A stretch of DNA of 64,000 nucleotides from a candidate division Kazan bacterium GW2011_GWA1_50_15 (lineage in GTDB: Bacteria; Patescibacteriota; Kazan-3B-28). The stretch is from the NCBI GenBank assembly GCA_001029795.1, contig CP011216.1:6903-70902 (forward strand), read 5' to 3'. Below the pieces are notes generated by a model. That model ran no database searches. It saw only the letters and a list, made by a program, of their open reading frames with translations, and had not been told where the DNA came from. The position numbers and the translations under genes are program-made. Position 1 is the stretch's first letter; every line of letters begins with the position of its first letter. Positions 20,191 through 60,950 of the stretch are shown here, piece after piece.

Positions 20191-20200
20191 ACAGATCAGA

Positions 20201-40535: not shown

Positions 40536-40792
40536 TTGCCTAGCCGTCTATTGACAGAGGTAAGAGATGGGCGTATCTTACCTCTTGGTATACAAGTAAT
40601 CTTTTAAAAGGAGTCTAAACAGGGTTTCTAACCCCGACTTGTCGGGGTGATAGAGGTCCACCGGTTCCTGAAAGTCAGGAGCTGCGTTTTGTTTGTTCGT
40701 CCTAGATTACTTGGCAACGTACTTTTCCAACCAGAGAGCACTCAGTGAGCTTTAGTTTTGTTGGTTAACTTGTCCGTTTAATAACGGACACA

Positions 40793-42675
<1,883 letters not shown>

Positions 42676-43153
42676 CTAGGGAGACAAATCCAATGTTTGG
42701 TGATCTTGCACAAAGAAAATCGAACATTCATTTCTTCCAAGAAATTGGTCGGCCCTGCCTTCGGGCAGGGGATAGATAGTTCGCTGAGTGCTCTCTGTGT
42801 GGAAGGGTTTTCTATAGAGATTCCGGCGAAAGCAGGGGTTTCTTTATGTTGTTTATTTTTCAAGCGTTCTCACCGCGCTTGACCCGGTGGCAACTTTTCT
42901 AGAAAAGTTGCACAAAAGTTCCCGCCAGTCGCTTTCGCTATTCAGCACAAACAATCCGTTCATCTGCTTATCACCAAACTCGCTACGCTCAAACATGGGC
43001 ACGCAGATTTGAACGATTGTTTGACTTCAGGACGCTCAAGCCCCAATGGCGGATGGAGATATGCTAACCCAATTTGCTCGATGGGTCCCAATAAGAAAGG
43101 ACGACCTTATACCAAAGGGCCGGATAGGGAATAGACAATTTGCTTAACAGGGG

Positions 43154-43774
43154 TTAACTAATGGCCGACTTGATCGCTTCTAAAAAGATATTGGCATTGT
43201 CGGTAGCATTTTCTTTGCCACTGAAGTGTCCAGCATGGTTGTAGGTAATAAGCCTGGCTCCTAATTCTTTACTTATATCTACCGCCTGTTGATAATCGAT
43301 GGTGTCGTCATCTTTTGAATGGATGACAATGAAGTGATTGGCTAAATTTTTAATTTTCTTGATATCTAACTTATATTCAAAGAAGCTAGCATAGTGCTGA
43401 TCTTTTCTATCGCGATTTGTTTCAATATCATTATTGAAAGTGGCTATCAGAATAACCGTGTCTACGACTACGTTGTATTGGTCGAGATATAAAAGAATAG
43501 CTCTAGTTCCCAAACTATGGCCGACTAGGACAATTGGCAGGTTGGTATTTTTAATTTCTCGGTTAATAGTTTCTAACCACTCTTTGGCCTGTGGGTCTTC
43601 GTCGCCCGGTAGAGCGGGGATAGCATATTCAATGCCTAAGCGGTTGAGTTCCTCGGCAATGATTTGGTACCTCTGTTTACTGGGGGAAGAAGTATATCCA
43701 TGGACTAGAACAACTTTTTCATAGCGTTTTTTGGTGGACCCGGGCGGACTTCCGCCGGCGTTCACTCTCATCAC
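43154..43774 (-). CDS. Alpha/beta serine hydrolase, YdeN/RBBP9-like family
   Basis: VVLVHGYTSSP...VLVGHSLGT nucleophile elbow GHSLG, with Asp/His downstream. Confidence 0.55.
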   Translation of the reverse strand: MMRVNAGGSPPGSTKKRYEKVVLVHGYTSSPSKQRYQIIAEELNRLGIEYAIPALPGDEDPQAKEWLETINREIKNTNLPIVLVGHSLGTRAILLYLDQYNVVVDTVILIATFNNDIETNRDRKDQHYASFFEYKLDIKKIKNLANHFIVIHSKDDDTIDYQQAVDISKELGARLITYNHAGHFSGKENATDNANIFLEAIKSAIS

Positions 43775-43882
43775 AAATAGGTCATTTGCCTCTTATGATA
43801 TAGATATCACTTTGGCGGACCTTGCTTCTCGTCCGTCCATATTCATAATAACAAAACAGAGCCAGACAGCTCGGTTTCGTTA

Positions 43883-43958
43883 TGGTGGACCCGGGCGGAC
43901 TCGAACCGCCTACCTCCGCATTGCAAATGCGATGTTCTACCGGGTGAACTACGGGCCC
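43883..43958 (-). tRNA. tRNA-Ala (anticodon TGC)
   Basis: Reverse complement gggcccgtagttcacccggtagaacatcgcatttTGCaatgcggaggtaggcggttcgagtccgcccgggtccacca. G3-U70 identity pair present. Confidence 0.8.
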
Positions 43959-44179
43959 TAAATCCCAAAGAAGCCAAGCGTAACGCGGTCAAATCCTATC
44001 AGAAAACCCAGAGCTATGGCAATCAGACCGAACAAGATGTAGGCGGTGTAGGTCCCGCCGCCGCCCAGATAACGCTCTGCCCAGCCGATTTTGAAACCGA
44101 TCAGTTCCGCTACCTTGCGGTGATAGATGACGAGAAGGATGCCGCCGAATACGCCCAGTACAAAGAAGAAAAATCTCAT
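43958..44179 (-). CDS. Small hypothetical membrane protein
   Basis: Two TM helices. The long ORF extends into the tRNA-Ala, so it is trimmed to MRFFFF.... Confidence 0.35.
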   Translation of the reverse strand: MRFFFFVLGVFGGILLVIYHRKVAELIGFKIGWAERYLGGGGTYTAYILFGLIAIALGFLIGFDRVTLGFFGI

Positions 44180-44243
44180 ATAGGCATTATAGCAACTTCG
44201 TTGCTGGACGTTGGTTTTTCTGCTAATCTGGCTGGTGTTGACG

Positions 44244-44320
44244 GGCGTGTAGCTCAGTTGGTTAGAGCGCTGTCCTGATAAGACAGAGGTCCCTGGTTCG
44301 AATCCAGGCACGCCCACCAG
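44244..44320 (+). tRNA. tRNA-Ile (anticodon GAT)
   Basis: gggcgtgtagctcagttggttagagcgctgtcctGATaagacagaggtccctggttcgaatccaggcacgcccacca. Confidence 0.85.
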
Positions 44321-44348
44321 ATATTCCGCTCCCAGAGCGGGTTTTTGC

Positions 44349-44377
44349 TTGACTTGAATCCGATTTTGCGATATAAT
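44349..44377 (+). promoter_or_regulatory. Consensus sigma70-type promoter (TTGACT-17-TATAAT) followed by a hairpin (44388-44410)
   Basis: ttgact 44349-44354, tataat 44372-44377. ggtgcccgttacgggcggcacc hairpin lies downstream, before the 44464 ORF. Confidence 0.5.
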
Positions 44378-44463
44378 GAAAATGATTGGTGCCCGTTACG
44401 GGCGGCACCTTGATACTCTAAATTCCGGGACCATGGGGTCCATCGTAAAGGATGTGATGAACA

Positions 44464-45465
44464 GTGGGGAAGAGCAACAAGCGGCGGGGTGCCGTGCCGA
44501 TTAATGTGGTCACGATGCACGAGCGGCCACATCTGGATGAGATCTGCGCGCTGTGGATGCTGCAACGCTTTGGGGAAAAGTTGTTCCCTGGAGTTGGTGA
44601 GGCTAAACTGGTTTTTACTACCAACGGAGCACGTTGCCAAAAAACTCCTGAGCAGTTGGAGTCAGAGGGTATTCTGTTGCTGGGCTGCGGGGGAGGCCGC
44701 TTCGACGATCACCGTGAGATGCCAGAGATCGGACAAGTGAGGCAACGCTGTACCGCCGATCTGGTAGCTGAGTATCTAGGGGTGGATCAAGTTCCGGAAC
44801 TTACGCCATTGCTTGATTTTGTCCGGAGAACGGATTTGGGCAAAGCACAACCGTTCGATTTATCGTCGCTAGTTAAGATGTATCATGCTGAGCCCAGTCT
44901 CTCGGGTGGCGATGTTGTGGATCTTGTAATGATCGCTCTGAACGCCAACTACATCAGTCAGCAAGCTTTCCACGACGGTGCCAGACGGGATCTGGAATCG
45001 GCTAAACGCCGGGAAGTACAAGATCCACGGACAGGAAAGACTTGGTTGATTATCTATGGTCAGTCGAATGACGAGAGATTCGCCAAGTCGGCGAGATTCT
45101 ACATCAAGAACACGGCTCTTGTTGTCCAGCAAACTACCAAGGGCAATATCCAAATCTTTGGGAGCGATAAGTTGAAGTTCAAGCTGTTCGGGTTGGCTGG
45201 AGCACTGCGGAAGCTCGAGGAGGAAATTCGGCTGGGCGAGGTTCAGGAGATTGACCCCAAGAAGCGGATGGTAGCTGGCAAAATGCATGAACTGGATGTC
45301 TGGTATATGCACGAGTCCGGCACCTTGCTCTTGAATGGGTCGTTGACGACGCCCGATGTCGATCCGACCAAGATCGATCTAGAGGCGATCGCCGACACGG
45401 CGGTCAAAAGTCTGCAGATTTTCTTTGGCCCAGACAAGACGAACCCAAAGAAGCCTCGAAGTTGA
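44464..45465 (+). CDS. Metal-dependent hydrolase, possibly MYG1/UPF0160-like
   Basis: N-terminal TMHERPHLDEICALWML resembles the MYG1 H....H.DE..A..LL motif, and the size (333 aa) fits. Weak. Confidence 0.35.
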   Translation: MGKSNKRRGAVPINVVTMHERPHLDEICALWMLQRFGEKLFPGVGEAKLVFTTNGARCQKTPEQLESEGILLLGCGGGRFDDHREMPEIGQVRQRCTADLVAEYLGVDQVPELTPLLDFVRRTDLGKAQPFDLSSLVKMYHAEPSLSGGDVVDLVMIALNANYISQQAFHDGARRDLESAKRREVQDPRTGKTWLIIYGQSNDERFAKSARFYIKNTALVVQQTTKGNIQIFGSDKLKFKLFGLAGALRKLEEEIRLGEVQEIDPKKRMVAGKMHELDVWYMHESGTLLLNGSLTTPDVDPTKIDLEAIADTAVKSLQIFFGPDKTNPKKPRS

Positions 45466-45473
45466 ACATTGAA

Positions 45474-45503
45474 AAAGGGGGCGGCAACGGCCGCCCCCTT
45501 AAT
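45474..45503. terminator. Bidirectional rho-independent terminator between convergent genes
   Basis: gggggcggcaacggccgccccc hairpin flanked by A- and T-runs. Confidence 0.6.
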
Positions 45504-45514
45504 TTATCTACAAC

Positions 45515-46075
45515 CTATTTCTCCCAGTATTTTTCCTCAATATGTCCGGCAAAGTATTCGTGGCGTTCTAGGGTAAAAAGTAAGTCCGATAGCCGGTTGA
45601 AAAATTTGCGGATGGCTGGGTCGACATCTTCGATCTCGGATAACGCTACTATCATGCGTTCGGTCCGGCGGCAGGTGGTGCGGGCGACTGACAAAAACGC
45701 GCCGGCCTTGTTCTGTCCGGGGACAATGAAGGTGGAAATGGGCGGCAGGTCTTGGGCAAAATAGTCGATGCATTTTTCTAACCCCGTGACATCCGCTTCG
45801 GTCATCACTGGTAGACGAGCGGGGTCGGTGTTGTTTAAGGGACTGGCCAGAATCGAGGCCGTGTTCATCAGTTTATGCTGGAGGCGTTCCAGCAGTTTTT
45901 TAATGTCCGATACATTGGAAAAAACTTTGGCCACTCCGATAGCGGCATTGAGTTCGTCGATGGTGCCGTAGGTCTGAACCCGGAGCGAGGTTTTGCTAAC
46001 CCTGGGTCCCCCAAATAGGCCGGTAGTGCCATCGTCGCCTTTGCGGGTATAGATCTTAGGTAGGTCCATGACCAA
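45515..46075 (-). CDS. PduO-type ATP:cob(I)alamin adenosyltransferase family protein
   Basis: IYTRKGDDGTTGLFGGPRVSKTSLRVQTYGTIDELNAAIG matches the PduO/MMAB N-terminal signature. Confidence 0.7.
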   Translation of the reverse strand: MVMDLPKIYTRKGDDGTTGLFGGPRVSKTSLRVQTYGTIDELNAAIGVAKVFSNVSDIKKLLERLQHKLMNTASILASPLNNTDPARLPVMTEADVTGLEKCIDYFAQDLPPISTFIVPGQNKAGAFLSVARTTCRRTERMIVALSEIEDVDPAIRKFFNRLSDLLFTLERHEYFAGHIEEKYWEK

Positions 46076-46107
46076 TCATTCTACCAGGCCTCTGTTAGAA
46101 TTAAAAT

Positions 46108-46860
46108 ATGGCGACTATCAAAACATCAGGGATAGTTATCCGCAAACTTAACTTGGGCGAGGCAGATAAGATCCTGACCGTGCTGACCCGAGACCGGGGC
46201 AAGATTCGGGTGCTGGCTAAGGGGGTTCGGCGGCCAAAGGCCAAATTGACCGGGTTTGCAGATTTGTTCCAGCACAATGATTTTATTCTCGCCGAAGGCC
46301 GCAACTGGGATATTGTCACCGCCGCGACTACAGTTGAGCGGCTCGTTGGTGACGACACCGATTTGGGGCAGATCGGTTTGATGTACTATGTTTGTGAGCT
46401 GGTTGACAAATTAATCGAAGAAACCCAGACAGTAGCAGGCAGTTTTGAACTACTTCGCGAAACGTTGGCTTATATTAAACATCATCCGGAGTCCAATGCG
46501 GTGCGGGCGTATTTTGAAATGAAGCTACTGACGATGCTGGGTTTTGCGCCGGAGTTGGGACATTGTATCATCAGTCGTTCGTCGCTTAACGAAGATCAGC
46601 CAATTTATTTCAGTGCGCATCTGGGAGGACTAGTATCAGAGGCGCACAGATCGGCGGATGATTTTGCCAGACCGATATCGGTCAATGGGGTGAAATGGCT
46701 GCGGTTGCTGCAGCGGTATCCTCTGGGAGGGATAGATAAAATAACGATTGAACCGGGCGTGGCCAAGGGAGCCAATCAATTATTGGCGGACTTTGTCGAG
46801 TACGCGACGGAGGTCAAGACCAAATCACTATCAGTTTTAGCGGAGCTGGAAAGCGACTAG
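46108..46860 (+). CDS. recO: DNA repair protein RecO
   Basis: N-terminal OB-fold pattern GIVIRKLNLGEADKILTVLTRDRGKIRVLAKGVRR and a C-terminal zinc/helical region. Confidence 0.75.
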   Translation: MATIKTSGIVIRKLNLGEADKILTVLTRDRGKIRVLAKGVRRPKAKLTGFADLFQHNDFILAEGRNWDIVTAATTVERLVGDDTDLGQIGLMYYVCELVDKLIEETQTVAGSFELLRETLAYIKHHPESNAVRAYFEMKLLTMLGFAPELGHCIISRSSLNEDQPIYFSAHLGGLVSEAHRSADDFARPISVNGVKWLRLLQRYPLGGIDKITIEPGVAKGANQLLADFVEYATEVKTKSLSVLAELESD

Positions 46861-47822
46861 CGCCGTCTTCGGTTATGGAATGCACTATGCACCTCTCTAA
46901 GCTGTTTGTTGGTGATGTGGGTGTAAACCTGCGTAGTGGTGATAGAGGCGTGACCGAGGAGGGCTTGGACCGAACGGATGTCGGCGCCGTTGATCAGAAG
47001 ATCGGTGGCATAGGAGTGACGCAGAGTGTGGGGTGTCACTTTTTTAACGATACCGGCCTTGGTGGCATATTTTTGGATAATGCGCTGAACCGAGCGAGGA
47101 GTCAGATTTTCAGCGTTGGTGTTAGTGCCGTGTGAGATAAAGACAAATTCGTTATTGTCTTTGCGTTTGTCCAGATAGCGATGCAGGGCGGCTTTGGCGT
47201 CGTTGGAGAGGAAGACCACCCGTGGTTTGTCGCCTTTGCCCCGCACCATAAACTCGCCGCGGTCGAGATTGATCTTGTCGCGGGTGAGGGAGGTAAGTTC
47301 GGATACCCGCAAGCCGGTGGAGAAGAGGGTTTCGAGAATAGCCGTGTCGCGCAGATTTTGTAGGCGGTCAGTTTGCGGAACAGCAGCCAAAATATCTTCT
47401 ACCTCTCGCGCGTCCAAAAACTCGACCGTCCGCTCAGGGATCTTGCTCAATTCGATCTTTTCAGCTGATAGAGTTTTAATATCCTGTTTGGCCAAAAACT
47501 TGAGGAAGGCCCGCAAGGCGATGACATGATAGTTTTGAGTGACTAGTTTTAATGGTCGGCCGTCGCCATCAGTGGTGCGATTTAAATACAACCGGTATTT
47601 GCGTACCAGGGGCAGGGTGATATGGGCAGGAGAGGGGACACCGCCGGACTCTTTGGCAAATTCTAAAAACCGCCGCAGGTAGTGATCATAGTTGCGTAGG
47701 GTCTTGGGACTGCGGTTTTTCTCGATCTCCAAATAGTCGAGAAAATCAGTCAGATGATCTTTTAATGTCACCACAATTATTATTGTACGACATTTCCAAG
47801 CAACGCCTCCGCCGCGTTGCAT
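46857..47822 (-). CDS. Tyrosine site-specific recombinase, XerC/XerD family
   Basis: R...HTLRHSYATDLL...LLGHASITTTQVYTH catalytic box. The listed ORF may include a spurious N-terminal extension. Confidence 0.8.
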   Translation of the reverse strand: MQRGGGVAWKCRTIIIVVTLKDHLTDFLDYLEIEKNRSPKTLRNYDHYLRRFLEFAKESGGVPSPAHITLPLVRKYRLYLNRTTDGDGRPLKLVTQNYHVIALRAFLKFLAKQDIKTLSAEKIELSKIPERTVEFLDAREVEDILAAVPQTDRLQNLRDTAILETLFSTGLRVSELTSLTRDKINLDRGEFMVRGKGDKPRVVFLSNDAKAALHRYLDKRKDNNEFVFISHGTNTNAENLTPRSVQRIIQKYATKAGIVKKVTPHTLRHSYATDLLINGADIRSVQALLGHASITTTQVYTHITNKQLREVHSAFHNRRRR

Positions 47823-47824
47823 CG

Positions 47825-47995
47825 GCGGTTACTTTCCTCTTGGGGAAAGTAACCAAAGCCGTGGCCCTGTTCGCTCGGTCTAAATAAAGAGCCAAATCTC
47901 CTTGGCGTTCTCGCCGAACTCGCCTTCGGCTCAAACATGCGGCTCCACCCCAGGAGATTTGGCTATTCATGAACGACCTCGCTCCAAAGGGCCGA
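47825..47995. repeat. Intergenic structured repeat, copy B (partner at 53978-54155); candidate ncRNA
   Basis: About 75% identical to copy A in the same orientation. Hairpin ggttactttcc/ggaaagtaacc, then inverted repeat gccaaatctcc (47891-47901) / ggagatttggc (47953-47963). Copy A has compensatory changes. Confidence 0.5.
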
Positions 47996-48006
47996 GTGGG
48001 GAATAC

Positions 48007-49062
48007 TTATCGGGGGAGGTAGGAGAGTGGGTTGAGGGGAGTGCCGTTGTAGCGTATCTCGAAGTGGAGATGAGGGCCAGTCGAGCGGCCGGTGGAGCCC
48101 ATAATCCCGATAAGCTGACCTTGTTGGACATAGTCGCCCGAGTTGACTTTGAATTGGCTTAAGTGGGCATAGCGGGTGACCCAACCATTGCCGTGGTTGA
48201 TGTCGATATAGTTGCCGTACCCGCCGCGGACCGAGTAAGTGCGGACGATGCCAGCCGCTGAAGCGTAGATACCCCAGCCGTTCAGCCGGTTTAAGTCGAG
48301 CGCCTTGTGATAGGCCCGATAACCTTGGGAGATAAAGTGAGTCGGGGATTCAAGCGGCCAGATGAACTGCCCGGTTCCAGAGGTAGGATTGAAGTTAGGC
48401 AAACCTTGAATGTTGCCCGACGGTACGTATTGGCTGCCGCCGGAGGATTTGGGCGCTACCATGCCGGGGATCAAAAGTTCCTGACCGGAAAAGATGGGCG
48501 CATTTTGATCAATGGCATTGTATTTGACAATGTCGGCCACGTTGACTTTGTACCGCTTGGCGATGGTACTCAAGGTATCATTTTTGTTGACGGTGATATA
48601 GATACCGTCAATCGGAGGGATCTTTAGTTTTTGTTCAGCGGTGAGGCCGTTGCCGGTGAGCTTGTTAGCATACCGCAGGGTATCGGGGCCAAGACCGAAG
48701 TCACGGGCGACAGAGGAGACCGATTCGCCGGGCTTAACTTCGTAGACGATAGTTTCATGACGCGAGTTGCGAGAGATGATGGTTTCAGTGGCACCAGTTT
48801 TGAAGATGTAGTCACCGTTGTCGCCAACTGTGGTAATCACTTCGTCGTAAACGACGTCTTCATTGAAATATTCGGTCGAGGCCAACTCGGCTACGGTGCG
48901 ATAACGAACCCGTTCCTGGCCAACCTCGCCACCGACTGCTACGGCGGCAGGGCGAGGGATCAGACCAGAGAAGATGACCGTAATGGCCAGCGTAACAATA
49001 GCCCAGTGACTGCCAAAACTGTTGAGTGAACGGTAGATGGGCTTGAACGAGAGGCGAGGCAT
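48007..49062 (-). CDS. M23 family metallopeptidase with two LysM domains
   Basis: LysM motifs YEVKPGESVSSVARDFG and ITVNKNDTLSTIAKRY. M23 motifs HGNGWVTRYAHL and GPHLHFEIR. Confidence 0.75.
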   Translation of the reverse strand: MPRLSFKPIYRSLNSFGSHWAIVTLAITVIFSGLIPRPAAVAVGGEVGQERVRYRTVAELASTEYFNEDVVYDEVITTVGDNGDYIFKTGATETIISRNSRHETIVYEVKPGESVSSVARDFGLGPDTLRYANKLTGNGLTAEQKLKIPPIDGIYITVNKNDTLSTIAKRYKVNVADIVKYNAIDQNAPIFSGQELLIPGMVAPKSSGGSQYVPSGNIQGLPNFNPTSGTGQFIWPLESPTHFISQGYRAYHKALDLNRLNGWGIYASAAGIVRTYSVRGGYGNYIDINHGNGWVTRYAHLSQFKVNSGDYVQQGQLIGIMGSTGRSTGPHLHFEIRYNGTPLNPLSYLPR

Positions 49063-49375
49063 CGGAATGTGTTTCAGGGTCGATAAATCCAGGCCGCGGA
49101 GCGACCTGGTGAGTTTGGCACGAGTTGCCTTGGCGAGACCGGTATGAGTTGGGGTCTGACGCCTAGTTGTATCTCGTCTGGTCTTTAGGCGGTCTGACAG
49201 CTTGGTGAAACGAGATGGTTTGTCGGTACTAATGACGGTGTCATTTAGTGGTATGACGGGGTTTATGTAACCCCCCTGAAACCAAAAAGAGCTCCTACGA
49301 TAAGCGCTCTAGAACCTTTATAATCCTACCAAAAACCCCACATTTGTCAAGGTGGAGGAGGACCGCACGAATGGT

Positions 49376-50377
49376 CTACGCCGAGACCACGGTGAGCCTA
49401 ATTAATCTGTCAAATCGGCTGGTATTGCCGGCCAGGTCAGTAGCTGTTAGCGAGATGGAGTATGTTCCGGGTTGTTCTGGGGCTGGCAGGGTGCCGGTGA
49501 ATATACTGGAGTCATTATGGTCAAATAGTTCGAACGATCTACCTTCCAGCTCGGCTACCACTTTGGCGGTGTTGAGAGAGCTAGGTACGAACAGACCGAA
49601 ACTTTCTCCAGCGATGGGACGGCTGGGGACCAGACGAATGTTAGCGGTATCTAGTTTGACGGGGGCGGTCTGGACCGTGATGGTGACCAAGTTGCTTACT
49701 GGACTACTTATCCCTAGGTCGCTTACAGCTACGGCTGAGAGGGTATGCTGACCATTGTAGAGAGGCTCATCGAGATGAACTCTGAACTGACCGTTAGCGT
49801 CGGTATGGGTAGTGGTGTTAACGGTTCCGTTATTAGTAATAATGATCTTTATGTTAGGCAGCCCGGTACCTACAACCTCTGGTTTAGGAGTATCAATGGC
49901 GACGCCGTCGGGCGGGCTGGTGAGAACTGGGGTAGCTGGGATGGTTGCTTCTGCTAACGTGATAGTGACGGTTTGCTCGATCGAACCTGACTTGATCAAG
50001 ATCAGGGTCTTGCCAGTTGTTGTACCTGCGGTGTAGGTAAAGATATAGGGTTGGTCAGCCGAGGGAGTGCGGGCGATATTTCCATCTCCCTGGATCAGGC
50101 TAGCGGTAACGGTTTGACGAGAACGGGTGGGCGTAACGGTGATCACGGCTTGGCTTTGGCCATCGGCCGGGAGCGTGTCGCGATCCACTTTGACCACTAG
50201 ATTCCAGCCCAAGACTCGAGTAAGAGTCTGGTTGATCTGGGAGAATACTTGGCGTCCGCTAATCCCACTTTGAGCAACGGCCACGATCGATCCAACGATA
50301 ACTATGACCACTGCCAAAGCGATGGCGGAGTAAAGTATGGGGCTGGGCTGAAACCGCGGAGGTTTAATTATCGGCAT
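49376..50377 (-). CDS. Hypothetical secreted/anchored protein with Ig-like repeats
   Basis: N-terminal TM/signal, Thr/Val-rich beta-strand repeats (TVTITL, VTITV). Confidence 0.4.
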   Translation of the reverse strand: MPIIKPPRFQPSPILYSAIALAVVIVIVGSIVAVAQSGISGRQVFSQINQTLTRVLGWNLVVKVDRDTLPADGQSQAVITVTPTRSRQTVTASLIQGDGNIARTPSADQPYIFTYTAGTTTGKTLILIKSGSIEQTVTITLAEATIPATPVLTSPPDGVAIDTPKPEVVGTGLPNIKIIITNNGTVNTTTHTDANGQFRVHLDEPLYNGQHTLSAVAVSDLGISSPVSNLVTITVQTAPVKLDTANIRLVPSRPIAGESFGLFVPSSLNTAKVVAELEGRSFELFDHNDSSIFTGTLPAPEQPGTYSISLTATDLAGNTSRFDRLIRLTVVSA

Positions 50378-50482
50378 GCGTCCATATTGTAGCGGTATCG
50401 TAAGCCTGTGAGCAATTGTATTTGCTCCATCTGTTTTGTGCTATATTATGGATACGTATAACAAGCACTAATTATTTTTGAT

Positions 50483-51907
50483 ATGGTCAGGATCAAAGAG
50501 GATTCACCCGGTCGATCGGTAAAGGTAACTAAACCAGAAATGGCACGCAAGTCTCAGCCAGCCGAGCCAGAGGTGTCGGCGGGAGCTAGCCGGTTGCGGC
50601 GATCACAACGGGGGCGGTCAGCCCGCCGGGGGATTTTTGCCACTATTTTGATCATTCTGTTATTGGGAGTAGGTTGGTTTACTGCTCGGGCCGCATTGGT
50701 CTGGCTCAATATTGATACCGGCAGCGGTTTCCTGGCCACCCTATTTAATATCAAAAGCACTAAGTTGATCGGCGAAGAAGATGGCAGGGTTAACTTCTTG
50801 TTGATGGGGAACCCCGGAGGCATGGATAACGACGGTCCGAACCTGACCGATACGATCATGTTGGCCAGCTACAACTCAACCGATAAGTACCTGCATCTAT
50901 TTTCGATCCCACGCGATCTCTACACTAATCTTGATGGCTACGGGATGACCAAAGCCAACGCGGTCTACGAGTTGGGTGATTCCAAGTTCAGTGATGGTTC
51001 AGGTACGGCTTTGAAGACGTTCGGAGATCTACTGGGTGTAACGATACCGTACTACGTCAAAATTGATTTTGACGGCTTTAAACAAGCAGTTGACGAGTTG
51101 GGTGGTGTGACGGTTGAGGTTAAGAAGGATCTTCTGGATACGCAGTACCCTGACGGGAATAAGGGTTATGTTACGGTTGATATCAAGGCCGGGACATACA
51201 CTATGGATGGCGAGATGGCATTAAAGTATGCCAGATCGCGCCAGAGTACTTCGGACTTTGATCGGGCCCGGCGGCAGCAGCAGATCCTGGTGGCGCTCAG
51301 AGATAAGGCCAAGGAGCTTGATCTGCTCACTTCTCCGACTAAGCTACTGGATATCGCCGGGATAGTCCAAGACCACTTCTCGACCAATCTGACCAACCCG
51401 GAGATGGGGCGTCTGTTGCAGCTATTGTCGGACTTTGACAGCACTCAGATCACGAACAAGGTCTTTGACGACAGTCCGGCCGGCGGGTTATACGGGACCA
51501 AAGTTGACGGTCTGTTCGTACTGAAGCCGGTTGGTGACGACTACAACAAACTGAAAGAGATGGTTGAGGCAGCTCTAGCGACTACCATGCCGGGTACAGA
51601 ACAGCCGGTTGAGGACGCAGTGACAACTCCGTTAAAAGTTGAGGTGCTCAATGGTACTAACGTTACTGGTTTGGCTGGCAAGATAGCAGCGACCTTAAAG
51701 ACGGGTGGATTCGATGTGGTCAAGACGGGTAACAACGCGACCAAAGGATTTACCGACTCCATTATTTATGACGGCACGGGGGGCACGCGGCCTAACGCGA
51801 TCCGGCAATTAGTAGAACTGACCGGCGCGACCTTGAGCACGGAAACGGTTACCCTGTCGGCCGGCGCTGAGGTGCGGTTGGTCGTGGGTGAATCGGCCAA
51901 CAAGTAA
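50483..51907 (+). CDS. LytR-CpsA-Psr (LCP) family protein with C-terminal LytR_C domain
   Basis: RVNFLLMGNPGGMDNDGPNLTDTIMLASYN...FSIPRDLY is the LCP core. N-terminal TM. Confidence 0.7.
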   Translation: MVRIKEDSPGRSVKVTKPEMARKSQPAEPEVSAGASRLRRSQRGRSARRGIFATILIILLLGVGWFTARAALVWLNIDTGSGFLATLFNIKSTKLIGEEDGRVNFLLMGNPGGMDNDGPNLTDTIMLASYNSTDKYLHLFSIPRDLYTNLDGYGMTKANAVYELGDSKFSDGSGTALKTFGDLLGVTIPYYVKIDFDGFKQAVDELGGVTVEVKKDLLDTQYPDGNKGYVTVDIKAGTYTMDGEMALKYARSRQSTSDFDRARRQQQILVALRDKAKELDLLTSPTKLLDIAGIVQDHFSTNLTNPEMGRLLQLLSDFDSTQITNKVFDDSPAGGLYGTKVDGLFVLKPVGDDYNKLKEMVEAALATTMPGTEQPVEDAVTTPLKVEVLNGTNVTGLAGKIAATLKTGGFDVVKTGNNATKGFTDSIIYDGTGGTRPNAIRQLVELTGATLSTETVTLSAGAEVRLVVGESANK

Positions 51908-51916
51908 CCCCTGCAC

Positions 51917-52702
51917 ATGCAAACAATCGGTGCTTGGCTCTGGGACAATCGTAAAAGCTTAATTACCACGGCGCTCTTCGGGGCGCTGTTGGAGTTGTTG
52001 TTTTTCTTCCCGGTTTATCTCACCTGGTGGTTGGTTGGCTTAACGATAATTTTATTAGTGGGAGTATGGTGGCTGGCTAGTTTTACCAGAGCCTGGCGAC
52101 GTTGGTGGTGGCTGTGGGCGGAGGCTATCTGGGTGGTGGTCGGCGGGTTGGGTTTGGTGGTGTTTAGTCTGCTGAATATGTGGCAGTTCCAAGCGATCAC
52201 ACTGGGGATAGTGTTGGTGCTGTTGGCTTTACTGCATACCTATGATAAATATCTCCAGACGGGGAGTTGGTCAGTAAAATCTTTCTCGCTTTTGAGTTTT
52301 CTTGATCTGGTGGCGTTCTTCGCCGCTGGAGCTGCCATATTAACGGCTACCGACTTCTATAATTTAGACCCGGCCTGGCTCATGCTGGCTTATCTGGGAC
52401 AGGTGATCTTGGCAGCTAACTTACGATTCTGGCGGGAGGAGGTGGTGAGTGTCCGGAAATGGTTTTATGTGCTAGTGACGGCCGTAGTGGTAGAAGAATT
52501 GCTTTGGGTTATCGCTTCGTGGCATCGGGGGGTCTACCTGAAATCATTCTTGCTGGCCATGATCTTCTACGTGTTCCTGGACTTTATTTTGCACTACAGC
52601 CGAGGGACGCTGACGATTAAGGTGGTAGTTGAGTATGCCAGTCTGGTCGCGTTCCTGCTGGTGGCTATCTTTGTTTTTGACTGGCTGCTGATCTTGCAGT
52701 AA
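51917..52702 (+). CDS. Hypothetical polytopic membrane protein
   Basis: Multi-TM ORF. Confidence 0.35.
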   Translation: MQTIGAWLWDNRKSLITTALFGALLELLFFFPVYLTWWLVGLTIILLVGVWWLASFTRAWRRWWWLWAEAIWVVVGGLGLVVFSLLNMWQFQAITLGIVLVLLALLHTYDKYLQTGSWSVKSFSLLSFLDLVAFFAAGAAILTATDFYNLDPAWLMLAYLGQVILAANLRFWREEVVSVRKWFYVLVTAVVVEELLWVIASWHRGVYLKSFLLAMIFYVFLDFILHYSRGTLTIKVVVEYASLVAFLLVAIFVFDWLLILQ

Positions 52703-52763
52703 TACTTATACGGTAATTGCGGATACATAGTAATATAGCGATATGCCTAATTGAGGTATTTTT

Positions 52764-53939
52764 ATGGACTTAAATCAATTTGATCGGGCGAACCTGGGCC
52801 TGAAGGTAAAGCGGTTCGACTGGAAACAACTGGGGATGTTGGTAGTAGCTGGGGCGGTCGGAGGGGTGATGACTTTATCTGGCTGGCTCTGGTTGGGGCC
52901 CGAAACCACTGTGCCAGGGAATAATACGGCTGCGGCGGACAGTACGATCCAGCCAGGCGGCGGCAGTACATTAGTCCAAAATTCGCCTACGGTTGAGAGC
53001 GCGGTCAAACAAGTTTTGCCGGCTGTGGTTGCTATTACTAGTAAAGACAAAGTGCAGAGCTTCTTTGGCGGAACCTACACCCAGACGGGCGGCGGGTCCG
53101 GGTTCGTTGTCAGGCAGGACGGTCTGGTAGTAACTAATAAACACGTGGTGAGTTCGACTACCGCGACCTATACAGTGACGACATCGGCTGGCAAAACCTA
53201 TTCGGCTTCGGTAGTGTCGCGCGACCCGGCGGCTGACTTGGCGTTGATCAAAATCAATGCCAGCAATCTGACTGTGGCGAGTTTGGGCGACTCCAGCAAA
53301 CTATCACTGGGCCAAGATGTGATTGCGATCGGTAACACTTTGGGCGAATATCAGAACACGGTGACTACCGGAGTGATTAGCGGGCTGAACCGGAGTATCA
53401 CGGCAGGAAACGGTTATGGCAGCAGCGAAAGCTTAACCGGGATGATCCAGACCGATGCGGCCATCAACCCAGGCAACTCGGGCGGGCCGTTGATCAATTT
53501 GAGCGGTGAAGTAGTTGGGATTAACACGGCCATCGACGCGCAGGGGCAATCGGTAGGGTTCGCTATCCCTATCAACAGCGTCCGCAGTCAGATCCAAATC
53601 GTGGCGGCGGGTGGGACTATCTCCCGTCCGCAACTGGGCGTTCGGTATGTGCCGGTCACGGCCGATTTGGCCACCGCTAATAAATTAAGCGCTAAAACCG
53701 GCGCTCTGGTAGTGCACGGGAGTGGGATAGGGGATGTGGCGGTAACGGCCGGTGGTCCGGCGGACTTAGCCGGGATTAAAGAAGGGGATATTATTGTTTC
53801 GATCAATGGTGAGAAAATCATCGAGACCAACGACCTGGGCACGGTAATTCAAAAGTATAAACCAGGCGATAGCGTGGCGGTAGTTTTAAATCGGCAGGGG
53901 CAAGTTAAGACGGTGAGTGTAAGGTTGGGGACAATGTAA
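52764..53939 (+). CDS. htrA: HtrA/DegP-family trypsin-like serine protease with PDZ domain
   Basis: Catalytic triad context VVTNKHVV...DLALIKI...GNSGGPL and a C-terminal PDZ. Confidence 0.85.
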   Translation: MDLNQFDRANLGLKVKRFDWKQLGMLVVAGAVGGVMTLSGWLWLGPETTVPGNNTAAADSTIQPGGGSTLVQNSPTVESAVKQVLPAVVAITSKDKVQSFFGGTYTQTGGGSGFVVRQDGLVVTNKHVVSSTTATYTVTTSAGKTYSASVVSRDPAADLALIKINASNLTVASLGDSSKLSLGQDVIAIGNTLGEYQNTVTTGVISGLNRSITAGNGYGSSESLTGMIQTDAAINPGNSGGPLINLSGEVVGINTAIDAQGQSVGFAIPINSVRSQIQIVAAGGTISRPQLGVRYVPVTADLATANKLSAKTGALVVHGSGIGDVAVTAGGPADLAGIKEGDIIVSINGEKIIETNDLGTVIQKYKPGDSVAVVLNRQGQVKTVSVRLGTM

Positions 53940-53977
53940 TTATTTTTTCAAGCGCCAAATTGCGCTTAACCAATTGC

Positions 53978-54155
53978 TACTTTTGTCTTGCCAAAAGTAG
54001 CCAAAAGCGTGGCCCTGGCGGCTCCGGTTCTATTTATTGGCTAAATCCACTTTCCGTTAATGGTCGAAACTCGTCGGCCTAAAGTCCTCCTCAAACATCT
54101 CCCCGCAGCGAGGATTTAGCTCAATTCAGAACGAACCTACGCCGAAGGGCCGGCT
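53978..54155. repeat. Intergenic structured repeat, copy A (partner at 47825-47995); candidate ncRNA
   Basis: Hairpin ctacttttg/caaaagtag, inverted repeat gctaaatcc (54040-54048) / ggatttagc (54112-54120), shared blocks gtggccctg, ctcaaacat, aagggccg. Confidence 0.5.
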
Positions 54156-54210
54156 AAGAGCAAGAAAAAGACCCCCGGAGGGGTCTTAGTCGAGTCGGTC
54201 AACCTTGTTG

Positions 54211-54585
54211 CTATGAGAGAATTCCAATGGTGCAGAAGCTGTTTCTGGTTTCTCCGCTGCGGATATTAGTCCAATGACCTTCCCAGTCCCACTCAGAGTT
54301 ATTGAGCTTCTTGTGATACTCGTACTGGTAACCAACATCGGATAGCCCGAACCAGAATTTCATTGTCGTGGAAACGGAATCTGATGAGTAGGCCTTTTTG
54401 AAGCTTAACTTGTCTGCCCCAACATTTCCCTGAATAGCAGAGGCACCATAGCGATCACTGATCGTGCCACTGAATTCGCCGGTGTCTTCTGTGATTGTGA
54501 TTTCTCCAACAAAATCACTTCCTCCCAAACAGTCCTCATAGATGCCACGGATTTGGTAGCGCCTATGACATGTTGCGCCTTCCAT
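54211..54585 (-). CDS. Hypothetical protein, 124 aa (low-GC orphan)
   Basis: ORF in a locally AT-rich patch. Trp/Tyr/Gly-rich, possibly beta-rich. Confidence 0.3.
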   Translation of the reverse strand: MEGATCHRRYQIRGIYEDCLGGSDFVGEITITEDTGEFSGTISDRYGASAIQGNVGADKLSFKKAYSSDSVSTTMKFWFGLSDVGYQYEYHKKLNNSEWDWEGHWTNIRSGETRNSFCTIGILS

Positions 54586-54681
54586 CGCCAGTACCTCCTT
54601 TAAGGTTCAATTGGACGTTTCAGTGTATCATCTAAAACCCCACTTGTAAAAGTGGGGTTTTAGTGATAACCAAAAGTTTGA

Positions 54682-55377
54682 TTACTTCTTGTGGCCGACT
54701 TCTTTGCGAAGATCGTCCAACGTCTCAGAGGCGGTTTTCTGTCCACCCAAACCGAAGGCCAGACCACCAGCCAAAGCGATCATAAAGAAGATGGCAGTGA
54801 TCAACCGGTCAATGATGGAAGCCGCGATACCGAGCTGATTCAAGGCAACCAAGATAGTGAAGACATAGATCACCCACTTGGTCATCGCTCCCAAGAACTG
54901 GGCAGCCCGCACGCGGGCGGCGCCGATGGTGCCACGGACCACTCCAGCAAAGAAGTGAGCCGCCAACACGCCGATCAGTAGGATGGCGATAGCCACGAAC
55001 ACGTTCGGGATGTAAACCAAGATCTGATTTAAGAAATCAGTTACCCTGGACAGGCCCAAGATATCAGACGCAGCTAGGAAGGCGATCAACAAAATGGTCC
55101 ATCTTACTAGGTTGCCGATGACCTCAGATACTTCCAGGTCAACGCCGGACTTGTCGAAGAAAGTCTTGGCGCCGATCTTGTTCAGGGCCCCGTCGATTTT
55201 AAGTTGCTTGAAGATCTGGGTAACTAACCGGTCTAAGCCGGCGGCTACGATCCAACCGATTAGCAGGATGACGATTGCGCCAACCAGAGCCGGGAGGAAG
55301 AGCAAGAAGCGCCCCCAAATATCTTGCAACGGGTTCAGGACGGCATTGCCCCAAACTGTGAAAAGATTATCCGTCAT
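54682..55377 (-). CDS. TM-helix-repeat membrane protein (MscS-associated conserved TM helix family)
   Basis: Repeated ...I.LL.IG...A..L...V hydrophobic units, Lys-rich C-terminus. Confidence 0.45.
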   Translation of the reverse strand: MTDNLFTVWGNAVLNPLQDIWGRFLLFLPALVGAIVILLIGWIVAAGLDRLVTQIFKQLKIDGALNKIGAKTFFDKSGVDLEVSEVIGNLVRWTILLIAFLAASDILGLSRVTDFLNQILVYIPNVFVAIAILLIGVLAAHFFAGVVRGTIGAARVRAAQFLGAMTKWVIYVFTILVALNQLGIAASIIDRLITAIFFMIALAGGLAFGLGGQKTASETLDDLRKEVGHKK

Positions 55378-55528
55378 TACGATTCCTTTTGTTTAATTTA
55401 TATATACGCGTATAGATAAATCCGATTTGTTTTTCGACCCTATGTGCCAAGGGCTGCCGCCCAATTGACGACAACATTATAACCAAAAACTGTCCAAATC
55501 TCAACTTTGGAAGAGAGGATATCTGGTT

Positions 55529-55612
55529 TGGTGGGCGAGAGAGGAGTCGAACCTCCATGGGTTGCCCCGCTAGCTCCTAAAGCTAGTGCGTCTGCCGTTT
55601 CGCCACTCGCCC
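55529..55612 (-). tRNA. tRNA-Leu (anticodon TAG), class II with long variable arm
   Basis: Reverse complement gggcgagtggcgaaacggcagacgcactagctttTAGgagctagcggggcaacccatggaggttcgactcctctctcgcccacca. Confidence 0.8.
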
Positions 55613-55616
55613 GTTT

Positions 55617-56291: not shown

Positions 56292-56778
56292 AGCGTTTGT
56301 TATTCCAAATGCGCAAATTAGGATTGGCCGGCGGCGGTTTGGCACTACTGTGTTCGATGACTAAAATGCCACCCTCGGCCAATAGGTTTTCCCAGCCGAT
56401 GATAGTAAGCTCATCTTCGTACCACGGGTCGGCAAAAATAATGTCGTATGGGTACTGGTTGGCGGGAATAAAATCTTCTACTAACATCATCCGCACAGCC
56501 GCCTTGTCTGCGATGCCGAGTTTGTTTAGATTTTGTTTGATCAGATTATAGTGGGCGCGGTCTTTTTCTATGAAGACGACGCGCGCCGCACCGCGGCTTA
56601 AGGCCTCGATACCGATTGCGCCGCTTCCGGCATAGAGCTCCAGAAAGTTGGCTCCAACGATTTTATCGCCCAGCACATCAAACACGGCCTTGCGCACCAT
56701 CTCCATCGCCGGTCGCAAGGTTGGCAGCGTATTGATGAGATGACCTTTAAATTGTCCGCTGGTAATTCGTAATTGCAC
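56248..56778 (-). CDS. rsmD: 16S rRNA (guanine966-N2)-methyltransferase RsmD
   Basis: LELYAGSGAIGIEALSRGA SAM motif and FADPWY (DPPY-like) motif. Confidence 0.7.
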   Translation of the reverse strand: MQLRITSGQFKGHLINTLPTLRPAMEMVRKAVFDVLGDKIVGANFLELYAGSGAIGIEALSRGAARVVFIEKDRAHYNLIKQNLNKLGIADKAAVRMMLVEDFIPANQYPYDIIFADPWYEDELTIIGWENLLAEGGILVIEHSSAKPPPANPNLRIWNNKRYGDTALTFYTHARG

Positions 56779-56844
56779 GATTGAATTATGAATTAGGAAT
56801 CATGAATTATGGGGTAAAATCTTCATACTTGATAATTCCTGTTT

Positions 56845-58869: not shown

Positions 58870-59635
58870 AGAGGATAGTTAAAAGTGGTAAGTGATAGGT
58901 GAAAAGTTAAAGAGGGGGAGGGGAGCCATAGGAGGGAAAGTGGCATAAAGTGGCTCTGGGAGCGATAAAACTCTTGACCAAACCCGATAAAAGGAGTATA
59001 CTTAAAGGATACCAGATGACGGGTAAGGAGGGTGGTCATATCAGATAAGAAGAACCACCTTTAAATGCAGAAGTCACCAAAGATAATCGATTTTTCTGGG
59101 ATGCAGTTTGATGTTAATAGGCGTCCGGGTTGGCGGTTGCGCCGCCGGGCCTGGGCTTTGAAATCTCGTAACTATGTCGCTCACAATGTCCGCACTATTT
59201 TCCAAAATCTATTTGGTGTCTAAATTGGCCTTGACCCGTTCGAGCATTTGGGTCAAAGATCAGTTTGAAAGTTTAGTGGTGGCGATGGAGTCGTTTGCCG
59301 CGGGACTTGGTTTGTAATTTTTTTCTGTCATGCTGAGTTTGTCGAAGCATCTAGGTCGAAAGGCCGTTTTTTTGTTTTATTTCCAAGGGTTTACACCACC
59401 CTTGATGGGAGTTCTTTTTGCCACCATTTTGCTCACCCAAAACGGTGGCGCCAAAAGGGTGCCCCACTCCCAAACTGCTATCCGAAAGGCAAAATCTTCT
59501 TTCTGGCTTTCGGCGAACTCCTCCTCGCCGACTCGTCGTTAGACAACGCCTTCGCTGCGAAGATTTTGCTATCGGAGAACGCAGTTCGCTCGATGGGTCC
59601 CAAGCAGATAGGATGGGCCCACGCCAAAGGGCCAA

Positions 59636-60829
59636 TTATTTGAGTTGGATAAATCTCCGTTTACCGACTTGGATGATGGTGCCTTTGACTGGTTCCACCA
59701 TAAAGTTGATGTCGGAGATGATGTGGTGGTCCACCCGCACACCGCGCTGTTCGATCAATCGCTTAGCCTCGGATTTAGAATTAGCCAAGCCGCTGTCCGC
59801 TAACAAATCAGTTAGTCCCCTGGCTTTTTTCAAATTGTAGGATTCCATCTCGTCCGGCTCGCCTTTCGTTCTAAAGACCCGGATGAAATTTTCTTCGGCC
59901 TTTTTAGCCGCCGCTTCGCCGTGGTACATTTCAGCGATGGCAAACGCCAACCGCATTTTAATATCGCGCGGGTTGGTTTTGGCAGACTTGAGTTCCTTTT
60001 TGATGGCGGCGATTTCTGTGGCTGGCAGATTGGTGACCATTTCAAAATAAGTCGCGATGACGGAATCCGGCAGAGACATAATTTTGCCGTACTGACTGCC
60101 GGCATCCTCAGTGACGCCGATGTCATTACCCAAACTCTGGCTCATCTTTTGTTTACCATCAGTGCCAACCAGTAAGGGTACGGCCAAGATGGCCTGCGGG
60201 GCCTGGCCAAAATCAACCTGCAGGTCACGGCCGCGCATCTCGTTGAAGATCTGGTCGGTGCCGATGACGGTGGCGTCCGATTCAATAGCGACCGAGTCAT
60301 AGCCCTGCAGCATCGGATAGACCGGTTCGTGAAAACCGATCTCTTGATGGGCCTTCATCCTACGCTGGAACATATCCCGCTCGATCATTTGAGCATAAGT
60401 AAAATGTCCCATCAGGCGGATGAGGTCTTCGGCCGACAGCTTATCGAGCCACTCGCCGTTGTAGCGGATCTCGGTTTTTTTGGGGTCTAAAATCGTTAGG
60501 GCCTGGCGGATGTAATGTTCGGCCATCTTTTTCACCTCCCGGGCATCACGGAGTTGGCGAGTTTTTTCCTTACCGGTCGGGTCGCCGAAGCGGGCGGTAA
60601 AATCGCCAATGACATAGACCACCGTGTGGCCGAGTTCCTGGAATTCGCGGAGTTTATGGTAGACCACCGAGTAGCCCAAGTGCAGGTCGGGTGTGGTTGG
60701 GTCCACCCCGTGTTTGATGCGGAGTTTCCGGCCGGAGGTCAGTTTGGCTCGCAGTTCCTTCTCGCCGATGATTTTGTCCACTCGGCGGGTCAAGAGGTCT
60801 TTCAGCTGGGTTTGACTAGGTTTTAGCAT
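59636..60829 (-). CDS. tyrS: Tyrosyl-tRNA synthetase (class I, with C-terminal S4 domain)
   Basis: HIGH-type HLGY, KMSQS (KMSKS), C-terminal S4-like LANSKSEAKRLIEQRGVRV. Confidence 0.8.
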   Translation of the reverse strand: MLKPSQTQLKDLLTRRVDKIIGEKELRAKLTSGRKLRIKHGVDPTTPDLHLGYSVVYHKLREFQELGHTVVYVIGDFTARFGDPTGKEKTRQLRDAREVKKMAEHYIRQALTILDPKKTEIRYNGEWLDKLSAEDLIRLMGHFTYAQMIERDMFQRRMKAHQEIGFHEPVYPMLQGYDSVAIESDATVIGTDQIFNEMRGRDLQVDFGQAPQAILAVPLLVGTDGKQKMSQSLGNDIGVTEDAGSQYGKIMSLPDSVIATYFEMVTNLPATEIAAIKKELKSAKTNPRDIKMRLAFAIAEMYHGEAAAKKAEENFIRVFRTKGEPDEMESYNLKKARGLTDLLADSGLANSKSEAKRLIEQRGVRVDHHIISDINFMVEPVKGTIIQVGKRRFIQLK

Positions 60830-60950
60830 ACCTGTATTGTATCAGAACGACAGGTGGGACGGATGGTATAATAGGAGACGTTCTCCCCTGTCATCCTGAA
60901 TTCATTTCAGGATCTGGATTCTGAAACTAGTTCAGAATGACGATACTTAT

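Follow-up and report, generated by a model that had tools for sequence, protein, structure and literature searches.

The window analysed here is a 64,000-nucleotide stretch of the genome of the candidate division Kazan bacterium GW2011_GWA1_50_15 (GenBank assembly GCA_001029795.1, contig CP011216.1, positions 6,903 to 70,902), in which genes for 16S rRNA, a serine hydrolase, RecO, an Xer-type integrase, an M23 peptidase, HtrA, RecG and TyrRS, all of them housekeeping genes, flank four copies of a structured intergenic element. Identical strain contigs are present in GCA_003531415.1 and GCA_003484385.1, and the protein encoded at 51917-52702 shares 74% identity with a protein of Kazan bacterium RIFCSPHIGHO2_01_FULL_44_14. 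The four copies, which were located by repeat finding and profile search and are named c1 to c4, all lie on the plus strand at intervals of 5-6 kb, the element being about 200-280 nt long. An nhmmer profile of 20 copies taken from other genomes, none of them from the window, matched them at 42848-43061 (c1, E 2e-24), 47799-48001 (c2, E 2e-38), 53940-54169 (c3, E 1e-35) and 59370-59604 (c4, E 3e-25). The next-best profile match in the window, at E 0.006, was only a palindromic hairpin of c2 (P2, described below) read on the opposite strand, and pattern searches allowing mismatches found no additional P2 hairpins. An original prediction, made from the letters of the window, had described a pair of intergenic repeats at 47825-47995 and 53978-54155 as a candidate structured non-coding RNA (ncRNA) family. 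Both are real copies on the plus strand (c2 and c3, with 76% mean column identity), but the count was too low, c1 and c4 having been missed. At least 28 distinct copies were gathered from Kazan-lineage genomes and metagenomes; loci from other genomes and metagenomes used for comparison carry L-numbers (L007, L056 and so on). These copies form a dispersed family of structured intergenic elements that are gained, lost and replaced between related genomes.

The anatomy of the element was defined on an alignment of 20-22 diverse copies. Its 5' module comprises two overlapping helices, S1 (for example CAAGCG/CGCTTG) and S2 (for example CACCG/CGGTG), followed by the hairpin P2; S2 pairs the 3' part of the S1 loop with the bases just before P2 and crosses S1. 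Because the S1-S2 loop is just 2-4 nt long against an S1 of 6-7 bp, general pseudoknot geometry makes it more likely that the two helices would form as alternatives than as a simultaneous pseudoknot. P2 is conserved in sequence (YTACTTTnnTCTTGnnnAAAGTAR) and is followed by the linker CCAAAG(C)CG. The 3' domain is a rod-like irregular hairpin of about 140 nt, with a closing helix P3, then P4 and the A/U-rich P5, an apical region reading (G/A)AACTCG...CTCAAACA, and returning strands that carry TTCAGRAC and CTCCAAWGG; the last 15-20 nt of the element are a purine-rich tail. The two P3 strands, GGCCC/GGGCC, are replaced in other copies by CCGCCA/TGGCGG, CGACCA/TGGTCG or TCCCCA/TGGGGA. Much of what the original prediction had singled out finds its place in this scheme. 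Its opening hairpins (ttactttcc/ggaaagtaa in c2, tacttttg/caaaagta in c3) are P2, and its long-range inverted repeats (gccaaatctcc/ggagatttggc in c2, gctaaatcc/ggatttagc in c3) are P5; its start was set some 25-30 nt too far downstream, the helices S1 and S2 preceding it. Among the blocks it took to be single-stranded, the apical motif CTCAAACA stands, but gtGGCCCtg and aaGGGCCg pair with each other as P3. The gene context, given there as both copies lying 3' of minus-strand genes and one of them 3' of htrA, was half right: c2 is bounded by the M23 peptidase stop and the Xer-type integrase start (both genes on the minus strand), and c3 lies 1 nt past the stop of htrA (plus strand) and is convergent with a gene for a 124-aa protein (minus strand).

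The 16S rRNA gene ends about 180 nt upstream of the core of c1 (42861..43052, plus strand), on which the minus-strand serine-hydrolase gene converges from the other side. The 5' module of c1 consists of S1 at 42861-66/42876-81, S2 at 42871-75/42885-89 and P2 at 42890-42911, and its rod of P3 at 42922-27/43047-52, P5 at 42948-56/43015-23 and the apical motif at 42976-42997. The tail that follows ('module X', 43061..43135, plus strand) is made up of 3' fragments of further copies: CCCAATTTGCTCGATGGGTCCC resembles the 3' strands of P4 and P3 in the L062a/L174/c4 subfamily, and GGACGACC..CCAAAGGGCCGGATAGGGAATAG corresponds to the 3' end of c2. Copy c2 itself (47800..48006, plus strand, with a GA-rich tail reaching 48006) has S1 at 47800-06/47814-20, S2 at 47809-13/47824-28, P2 at 47829-52 and the linker CCAAAGCCGT at 47853-62, followed by P3 at 47863-67/47989-93, P4 at 47877-80/47975-78, P5 at 47891-901/47953-63 and the apical motif at 47916-39. 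Its 5' end overlaps the predicted integrase start, and the M23 peptidase stop codon (48007-48009) follows directly on its 3' end. The predicted integrase ATG (47820-47822, minus strand) falls inside the S1/S2 region, so that the reverse complement of c2 would be the 5' leader of the integrase gene.

Copy c3 (53950..54165, plus strand, with a GA-rich tail reaching 54165) begins 9-10 nt past the htrA stop codon (53937-39). Its helices are S1 at 53950-54/53963-67, S2 at 53958-62/53971-75 and P2 at 53977-54000, then, after the linker at 54001-10, P3 at 54011-15/54147-51, P4 at 54027-31/54128-32 and P5 at 54040-48/54112-20, with the apical CTCAAACATC at 54090-99. Copy c4 (59384..59645, plus strand) belongs to a divergent subfamily and has an extended tail with ..CCAAAGGGCC; S1 lies at 59384-90/59398-404, a variant P2 at 59420-49, P3 at 59463-66/59594-97, P4 at 59471-78/59581-88, P5 at 59489-99/59559-69 and a variant apical motif at 59538-48. 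It sits downstream of a conserved 47-aa open reading frame (ORF) on the plus strand and overlaps the stop codon of the minus-strand TyrRS gene. This ORF (about 59170-59316) ends in ..SFAAGLGL*, its counterpart in L007 ends in ..SFTAGLGL*, and it is called as a gene in the strain contigs. Two further ORFs on the opposite strand, of 74 aa (47746-47970) and 94 aa (59351-59635), are placed wholly inside c2 and c4; they are probably artefacts of the repeat that could be mis-annotated as genes, and spurious ORFs generated in this way can mislead both annotation and assembly.

Selection on the structure was assessed in two sequence-only MAFFT alignments, one of 22 sequences for S1, S2 and P2 of the 5' module (A6) and one of 20 sequences for the 3' domain, with helices from RNAalifold (A5). 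In the 5' module 96.6% of the cells were paired, compared with 75.1% in shuffles and 34-51% when the partners were slid; the corresponding values for the 3' domain were 81.5%, 64.3% and 30-52%. Changes on both sides were found in 16 of 20 and 23 of 27 pairs, respectively, and the covariation scores of 0.564 (0.163 when shuffled) and 0.508 (0.213 when shuffled) were reached by none of 500 shuffles in either case. S2, which had been used in building no alignment, was 93% paired, with four of four pairs covarying, and for single copies the native sequence folded better than its shuffled versions (z -2.1 to -6.2). The sequences in these statistics are related, a point that the slid-partner controls and the distinct pair types address; on the strength of these controls and of the number of distinct pair types, a structure-free explanation is untenable. 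All helices are kept by compensatory substitutions. Thus the claim that the stems differ in sequence yet stay complementary, made from two copies, holds on 20-22 sequences with controls, and of the proposed ncRNA family a structure-based family with covariation remains, although not a small set of independent ncRNA genes. The Rfam search that the original prediction had also suggested matched no family to the window copies, while further copies and covariation were found. At the gathering threshold Rfam 15 returned only rRNA and tRNA from the whole window, and likewise from seven related loci, and E-value scans of c1, c2 and c3 gave only noise (E 0.09 or worse). Coding potential was considered and rejected: c2 and c3 differ by indels of 1, 2 and 11 nt that would break any frame, and c1 and c3 have no minus-strand ORF of the kind that covers c2 and c4.

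The copies are placed in a consistent manner relative to their neighbours. Among 20 copies with an upstream neighbour within 400 nt, that gene was co-oriented in 16, or in 17 after a spurious ORF lying in the rRNA region was replaced by the 16S gene for c1 (two-sided binomial p ~0.003), and the 5' end of the element often falls 0-20 nt past the upstream stop codon. Downstream, 14 neighbours were convergent and 8 co-oriented. The upstream genes are a varied set of housekeeping genes, including those for 16S rRNA, HtrA, RecO, DnaJ, a DUF5656 protein, TyrRS, FtsZ, GreA, a glycosyl-transferase-4 (MraY-type) protein and methyltransferases; L007 has just one inverted copy, which lies behind a minus-strand TyrRS gene and so obeys the co-orientation rule too. 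A consensus scan of 42600-60000 found no sigma-70-like promoter upstream of any copy, although promoters of the candidate phyla radiation (CPR) may differ from that consensus, and a scan of the same region found no intrinsic terminator bracketing the copies, only internal helices or the terminator of a neighbour being called. Nor is the element itself an intrinsic terminator, as T-rich tracts lie before S1 instead of behind it, in only about half of the copies, and the tail at the 3' end consists largely of purines. Both at c3 and at its counterpart in L007, the intrinsic terminator of the convergent gene sits between that gene and the element; in the window it occupies 54168..54187 on the minus strand (AAGACCCCTCCGGGGGTCTT then TTTCTTG), so the minus-strand transcript of the 124-aa gene should stop before c3. 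The gap between the c3 tail and this terminator is only about 3 nt long and leaves no room for a minus-strand promoter. A cassette formed with the adjacent 124-aa gene was considered and rejected, that gene being unlike the small ORF beside the L013 copy. The co-oriented upstream gene, the start at a stop codon and the lack of a recognisable promoter or terminator of its own favour transcription of the element on the plus strand, as a 3' untranslated region (UTR).

Comparison of related genomes showed that the copies turn over. A copy follows recO in L007, L012 and L013; in the window and in L056 recO overlaps the integrase gene and no copy is present there. The htrA copy is present in the window and L007 and absent in L011, L012, L055 and L057. 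In L056 the copies sit after dnaJ and after the DUF5656 gene, and in the metagenomes copies are found after ftsZ, greA, the glycosyl-transferase-4 gene and methyltransferase genes, among them L163, a c2-like copy after a methyltransferase gene. Likenesses between subfamilies cross genomes and loci (c1 with L56b, L56a with L7d, L12b with L55a, c2 with L163): c1 and L56b are alike yet occupy different loci, and the site between the 16S rRNA and hydrolase genes holds different subfamilies in the window and in L055. Truncated fragments exist, as in the c1 tail, and at 19397-19935 of L007 a tail-to-tail inverted pair has another repeat nested inside. Filled and empty sites could be recognised (recO/integrase, htrA 3' end) in genomes too diverged for junction alignment. 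No candidate transposase was seen next to any copy or in the loci examined (up to 21 kb around chosen genes), and no terminal inverted repeats were detected, the leader-tail duplex reaching -9.35 kcal/mol within a copy compared with -8.31 +/- 3.5 kcal/mol between copies. An outer helix of the U-rich leader with the GA-rich tail was accordingly dropped, being no better within than between copies, with a T-rich leader in about half of them. Blastn found no matches in phage, plasmid or E. coli collections; a phage origin was also set aside, since a pattern scan of viral contigs gave 41 hits that were all noise by profile. The element behaves like one that multiplies or recombines, as a dispersed intergenic repeat does: presence and absence, varying loci, fragments, inverted pairs and relatives elsewhere mark it as such rather than as a set of independent small RNA (sRNA) genes.

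The relatives extend well beyond the Kazan lineage. A metagenome scan with the P2-plus-linker pattern retrieved at least 118 loci. Among the matches listed, about 18 loci carry full Kazan-type elements, and about 90 further loci, from genomes with G+C contents (GC) of 0.38-0.71, carry a hairpin abutting a near-identical P2 and then CAAAACCG; these fall into three large clusters, with many loci multi-copy and in both orientations. Cluster A (at least 38 copies, GC ~0.6) is identified as Pseudomonas-type because its member L166 carries RsmZ. Its elements are about 300 nt long, with a sharp 5' boundary and flanking 6-7-nt tandem repeats; they start with GAGCTTATCCATT and end with ..GAAGTCGCA, ends that show no inverted match. 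The Pseudomonas-type relatives (L166 3838-4580; L061, L094, L149) frequently form tail-to-tail inverted pairs around a REP-like GGGAGCGGGCTTGCCCGCGAAGAGGC, with flanking tandem repeats such as CCAAAGA and GCTGGT, and the L166 pair lies about 400 nt from RsmZ. Cluster B (at least 25 copies, GC ~0.7) shares the apical motif AACTCGCnnCGCTCA(A/G)ACA. In 21 of the 108 GC-rich copies listed, mostly from cluster B plus L072, the motif AACTCG..CTCA(A/G)ACA occurs 70-101 nt past P2, at the same distance and in the same orientation as in the Kazan copies, whereas controls taken upstream or from the reverse complement contained none. In 60% of the GC-rich copies listed, compared with 11% of shuffles, P2 directly adjoins a perfect stem of 4 bp or more, with 12 distinct stem sequences; this per-sequence test replaced a column-wise count of S2, MAFFT having placed the GC-rich stems in two registers. 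Co-orientation of the upstream gene is a weaker bias here (35 versus 19, from crude gene calls on the matches listed), and the Kazan profile aligns only the P2 region of the Pseudomonas-type relatives in nhmmer. Judged by these shared sequence features, the Kazan elements are a branch of a wider superfamily that includes Pseudomonas-type and other bacteria.

How might such an element work? Our preferred reading, held tentatively and with confidence just short of even, is that of a dispersed, structured 3'-UTR repeat that acts in cis, as RNA, on mRNA 3' ends. The element would be transcribed from the plus strand as the 3' UTR of the upstream gene, and the folded RNA would act on the 3' end of that gene's mRNA, whether as a block to 3'-to-5' exonucleases, as an RNase III-type processing site or by insulating convergent transcription; the repeat itself would multiply as a non-autonomous element. 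Blocking, processing and insulating roles of this kind have been reported for REP, ERIC, BOX and Correia elements. Several observations weigh against it. Three copies (c2, L075 and L109) do not follow a co-oriented gene, and terminator-like hairpins with T-runs precede c1 and c4 and would limit read-through from upstream. The pairs themselves give no strand signal: the 5' module counts 417 Watson-Crick, 4 G-T and 4 A-C pairs, isolated mismatches number 8 G-U and 7 A-C, and the 35 G-T against 20 A-C in the 3' domain include an excess partly due to a mis-aligned bulge and allow no strand call. A G-U share below 1% in the 5' module is unusual for RNA and fits a constraint at the DNA level, the more stable fold belongs in 14 of 14 copies to the reverse complement, a strand with more G and U, and the match of the Pseudomonas-type relatives to the TwoAYGGAY family (see below) is partial and on the strand opposite to the orientation used for the element. 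Strand assignment from wobble pairs was dropped, G-U and A-C counts being close to balanced, and gene context is the more informative on this point.

The main rival places the function in DNA: the hairpins would be single-stranded DNA recognition structures for a trans-acting transposase or recombinase, as in HUH-type systems such as PATEs and REP/RAYT, and the compensatory changes would reflect selection for transposition competence and not RNA function. We regard this as rather unlikely, and the two readings are not exclusive. It draws on the nearly pure Watson-Crick helices with no excess of G-U over A-C, on the lack of terminal inverted repeats and the sharp, non-inverted ends of the Pseudomonas-type copies, on the polymorphism of copies between genomes with subfamilies at new loci, on truncated fragments such as the c1 tail, and on the tail-to-tail inverted pairs in L007 (19397-19935), L166 and L061. 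A shared orientation of 13 of 14 syntenic-region copies, in a window of uniformly positive GC skew, and a distribution across phyla that suggests horizontal spread point the same way. However, no candidate transposase lies beside the copies; the neighbours are housekeeping genes, and the adjacent integrase is a syntenic Xer-type gene. The overlapping S1 and S2 both covary, which suits alternative RNA folds better than a transposase hairpin, the conserved loop motifs and the start near stop codons in gene orientation fit a role at the level of the transcript, and the recO copy persists in three genomes with no more than 53-74% identity between the neighbouring proteins.

Independently transcribed, paralogous sRNAs acting in trans, as the original prediction implied, are improbable. 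The covarying structure would suit them, the several copies per genome resemble multi-copy sRNA families, and conserved loop and linker motifs (CCAAAG, AAACTCG, CTCAAACA, TTCAGAAC) could be seed or protein-binding sites; TwoAYGGAY, which the Pseudomonas-type relatives match in part, has moreover been proposed as a probable non-cis-regulatory RNA. Against this, no promoter-like or terminator-like signals surround the copies, a start at or within a few nucleotides of the upstream stop codon leaves no room for a promoter, and neither does the gap at c3 for one on the minus strand. Even the loops of the paralogues diverge by about 25-40% outside a few motifs, related genomes can do without a given copy, and the conserved motifs show no complementarity to 16S rRNA. 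Finally, the reading as a duplication in decay, or as a similarity by chance, with a structure not under selection, is refuted. Some copies are fragments, such as the c1 tail, but a profile free of window sequence reached E-values down to 1e-38, pairs changing on both sides predominate in both domains with 82-97% of cells paired against 30-52% for slid partners, and the core is conserved across genomes of GC 0.38-0.71.

A broader proposal, which we consider unlikely though worth stating, is that the Kazan elements, the ~300-nt Pseudomonas-type repeats and cluster B constitute one ancient or horizontally spreading structured class with a core read by a conserved factor. That core may consist of the hairpin, P2 (ACUUUnnUCUUGnnnAAAGU), CAAAASCG, CCCUG..GCU.CUCG and AAACUCG..CUCARACA, and the factor could be either a new enzyme mobilising single-stranded nucleic acid or a widespread RNA-binding or RNA-processing protein that marks mRNA 3' ends. 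If true, this would be an undescribed class of RNA or mobile element spanning CPR and Proteobacteria, with S1/S2 as a conformational switch. CPR genomes measure about 0.6-0.7 Mb and contain very little non-coding DNA; several folded elements of 200-280 nt are therefore unexpected in such a genome and point to a useful role or to effective spread. The core is shared with abundant repeats in Pseudomonas-type and other bacteria, and Pseudomonas is a genus open to experiment. Should the elements shape mRNA 3' ends, they would represent a widespread layer of post-transcriptional control; should they be mobilised as folded single strands, an unrecognised mobilisation system would be common to several phyla.

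Other features of the window were noted alongside the element. Short hairpin repeats of the form TGTCATSCTGA-N-TCAGSATCTA occur at 30872-30910, 59315-59353 and 60890-60941, and also in the flanks of L007 and L056; they are intergenic, often beside the large elements, and constitute a small family of their own. A further repeat family, unrelated and about 145 nt long, has copies at 5960-6149, 15177-15320 and 17429-17573; it contains CACTGTCNCATTTGTCNCATTT and ends with ..GCTGTTGAGCCA, and two of the three share 80-93% identity. Within 592-690, tRNA-Asn ends in a sequence that, together with the next 25 nt (661-690), is repeated at 15314-15343 with 93% identity, and GC is 0.38-0.45 over 1-16 kb but about 0.51 elsewhere in the window; the pattern resembles that of an island, about 14.6 kb long and inserted at tRNA-Asn, with one copy of the ~145-nt repeat at its putative edge. 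The 16S rRNA gene (40792-42680) appears to carry insertions, the full Rfam model spanning 1,633 nt to 42424 and the anti-Shine-Dalgarno end (CACCTCCTTTCT) lying near 42665-42678; no 23S gene follows it in the window, and a similar long gap lies behind the L055 16S gene. Three tRNA-Met(CAT) genes, one on the plus and two on the minus strand, lie within 2 kb (20116-22035).

The literature searched, including that on P. fluorescens repeat families, CPR repeats and TwoAYGGAY, holds no description of the element. Among the relatives, cluster A is like the Kazan element in having a hairpin that abuts a near-identical P2 (ACTTTnnTCTTGnnnAAAGT), then CAAAACCG and CCCTnnGCTnCnCG, a long irregular hairpin and many copies, but it lacks S1, has extra hairpins including one with an AUGGAU loop, is about 100 nt longer and is flanked by tandem repeats. 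The long 'R' intergenic repeats of P. fluorescens include R200 (320 bp) and R26 (352 bp) (PMC2718517), and cluster A may correspond to one of these R families, a candidate by description whose sequences were not compared. The 3' domain of the Pseudomonas-type relatives matches positions 45-113 of the TwoAYGGAY model (RF01731), with scores of 49.2 bits (L059), 43.5 bits (L071) and 39.3 bits (L166) against a gathering score of 43 bits; the four window copies, which have no AYGGAY loop, gave no match to it even at E up to 10. Apart from this partial match on the opposite strand, the relatives of the Kazan element are likewise absent from Rfam. Two other structured classes were rejected for the element. 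Integron attC sites measure 57-141 nt and come with arrays of promoter-less cassettes, whereas the elements are 200-280 nt long and are spaced at 5-6 kb in a syntenic region whose housekeeping genes occupy both strands, and the attC core sites RYYYAAC...GTTRRRY were not seen in the alignments. Group IIC introns are at least 600 nt long with a 5' GUGYG and a domain V, whereas the element is about 200 nt long, begins with CAAGCG or similar and has no group-II match in Rfam.

Closer parallels are found among mobile and interspersed repeats. PATEs (IS200/IS605) and REP/RAYT resemble the element in their sub-terminal hairpins, strand or orientation bias, near-pure Watson-Crick stems and scattered non-autonomous copies; unlike them, it has no TnpA or RAYT gene in the loci examined, shows no conserved GTAG or defined cleavage tetranucleotide and no derived target-site rule, and is larger and more complex than REP. 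It is multi-copy, non-coding and polymorphic between related genomes, as interspersed repeats are, and does not have the terminal inverted repeats of miniature inverted-repeat transposable elements. ERIC/IRU, BOX, RUP, Correia and RPE are likewise non-coding, 100-300 nt long and present in several to many copies per genome, and repeats of the ERIC/BOX type share with the Kazan element predicted long imperfect hairpins, an intergenic position where genes end, with a bias towards tail-to-tail gaps, copies that can be modular or truncated, and sites filled in some relatives and empty in others. ERIC and REP elements are transcribed together with the genes beside them and change how the mRNA decays or terminates; the Kazan element has a hairpin conserved by structure at gene 3' ends, and its transcription is predicted. 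Unlike the ERIC/BOX type, it has no sequence similarity to them (blastn with the superfamily 5' module found no match in 5,426 E. coli genomes, and we know of no match to BOX or Correia, for which no search was made) and no detected terminal inverted repeats. It also differs in being strongly oriented, with its 5' end at the stop codon of a co-oriented gene, and in having two overlapping covarying helices in its 5' module. Whereas the named ERIC/BOX-type families are confined to a genus or family, the core of the Kazan element is conserved from CPR to Pseudomonas-type bacteria.

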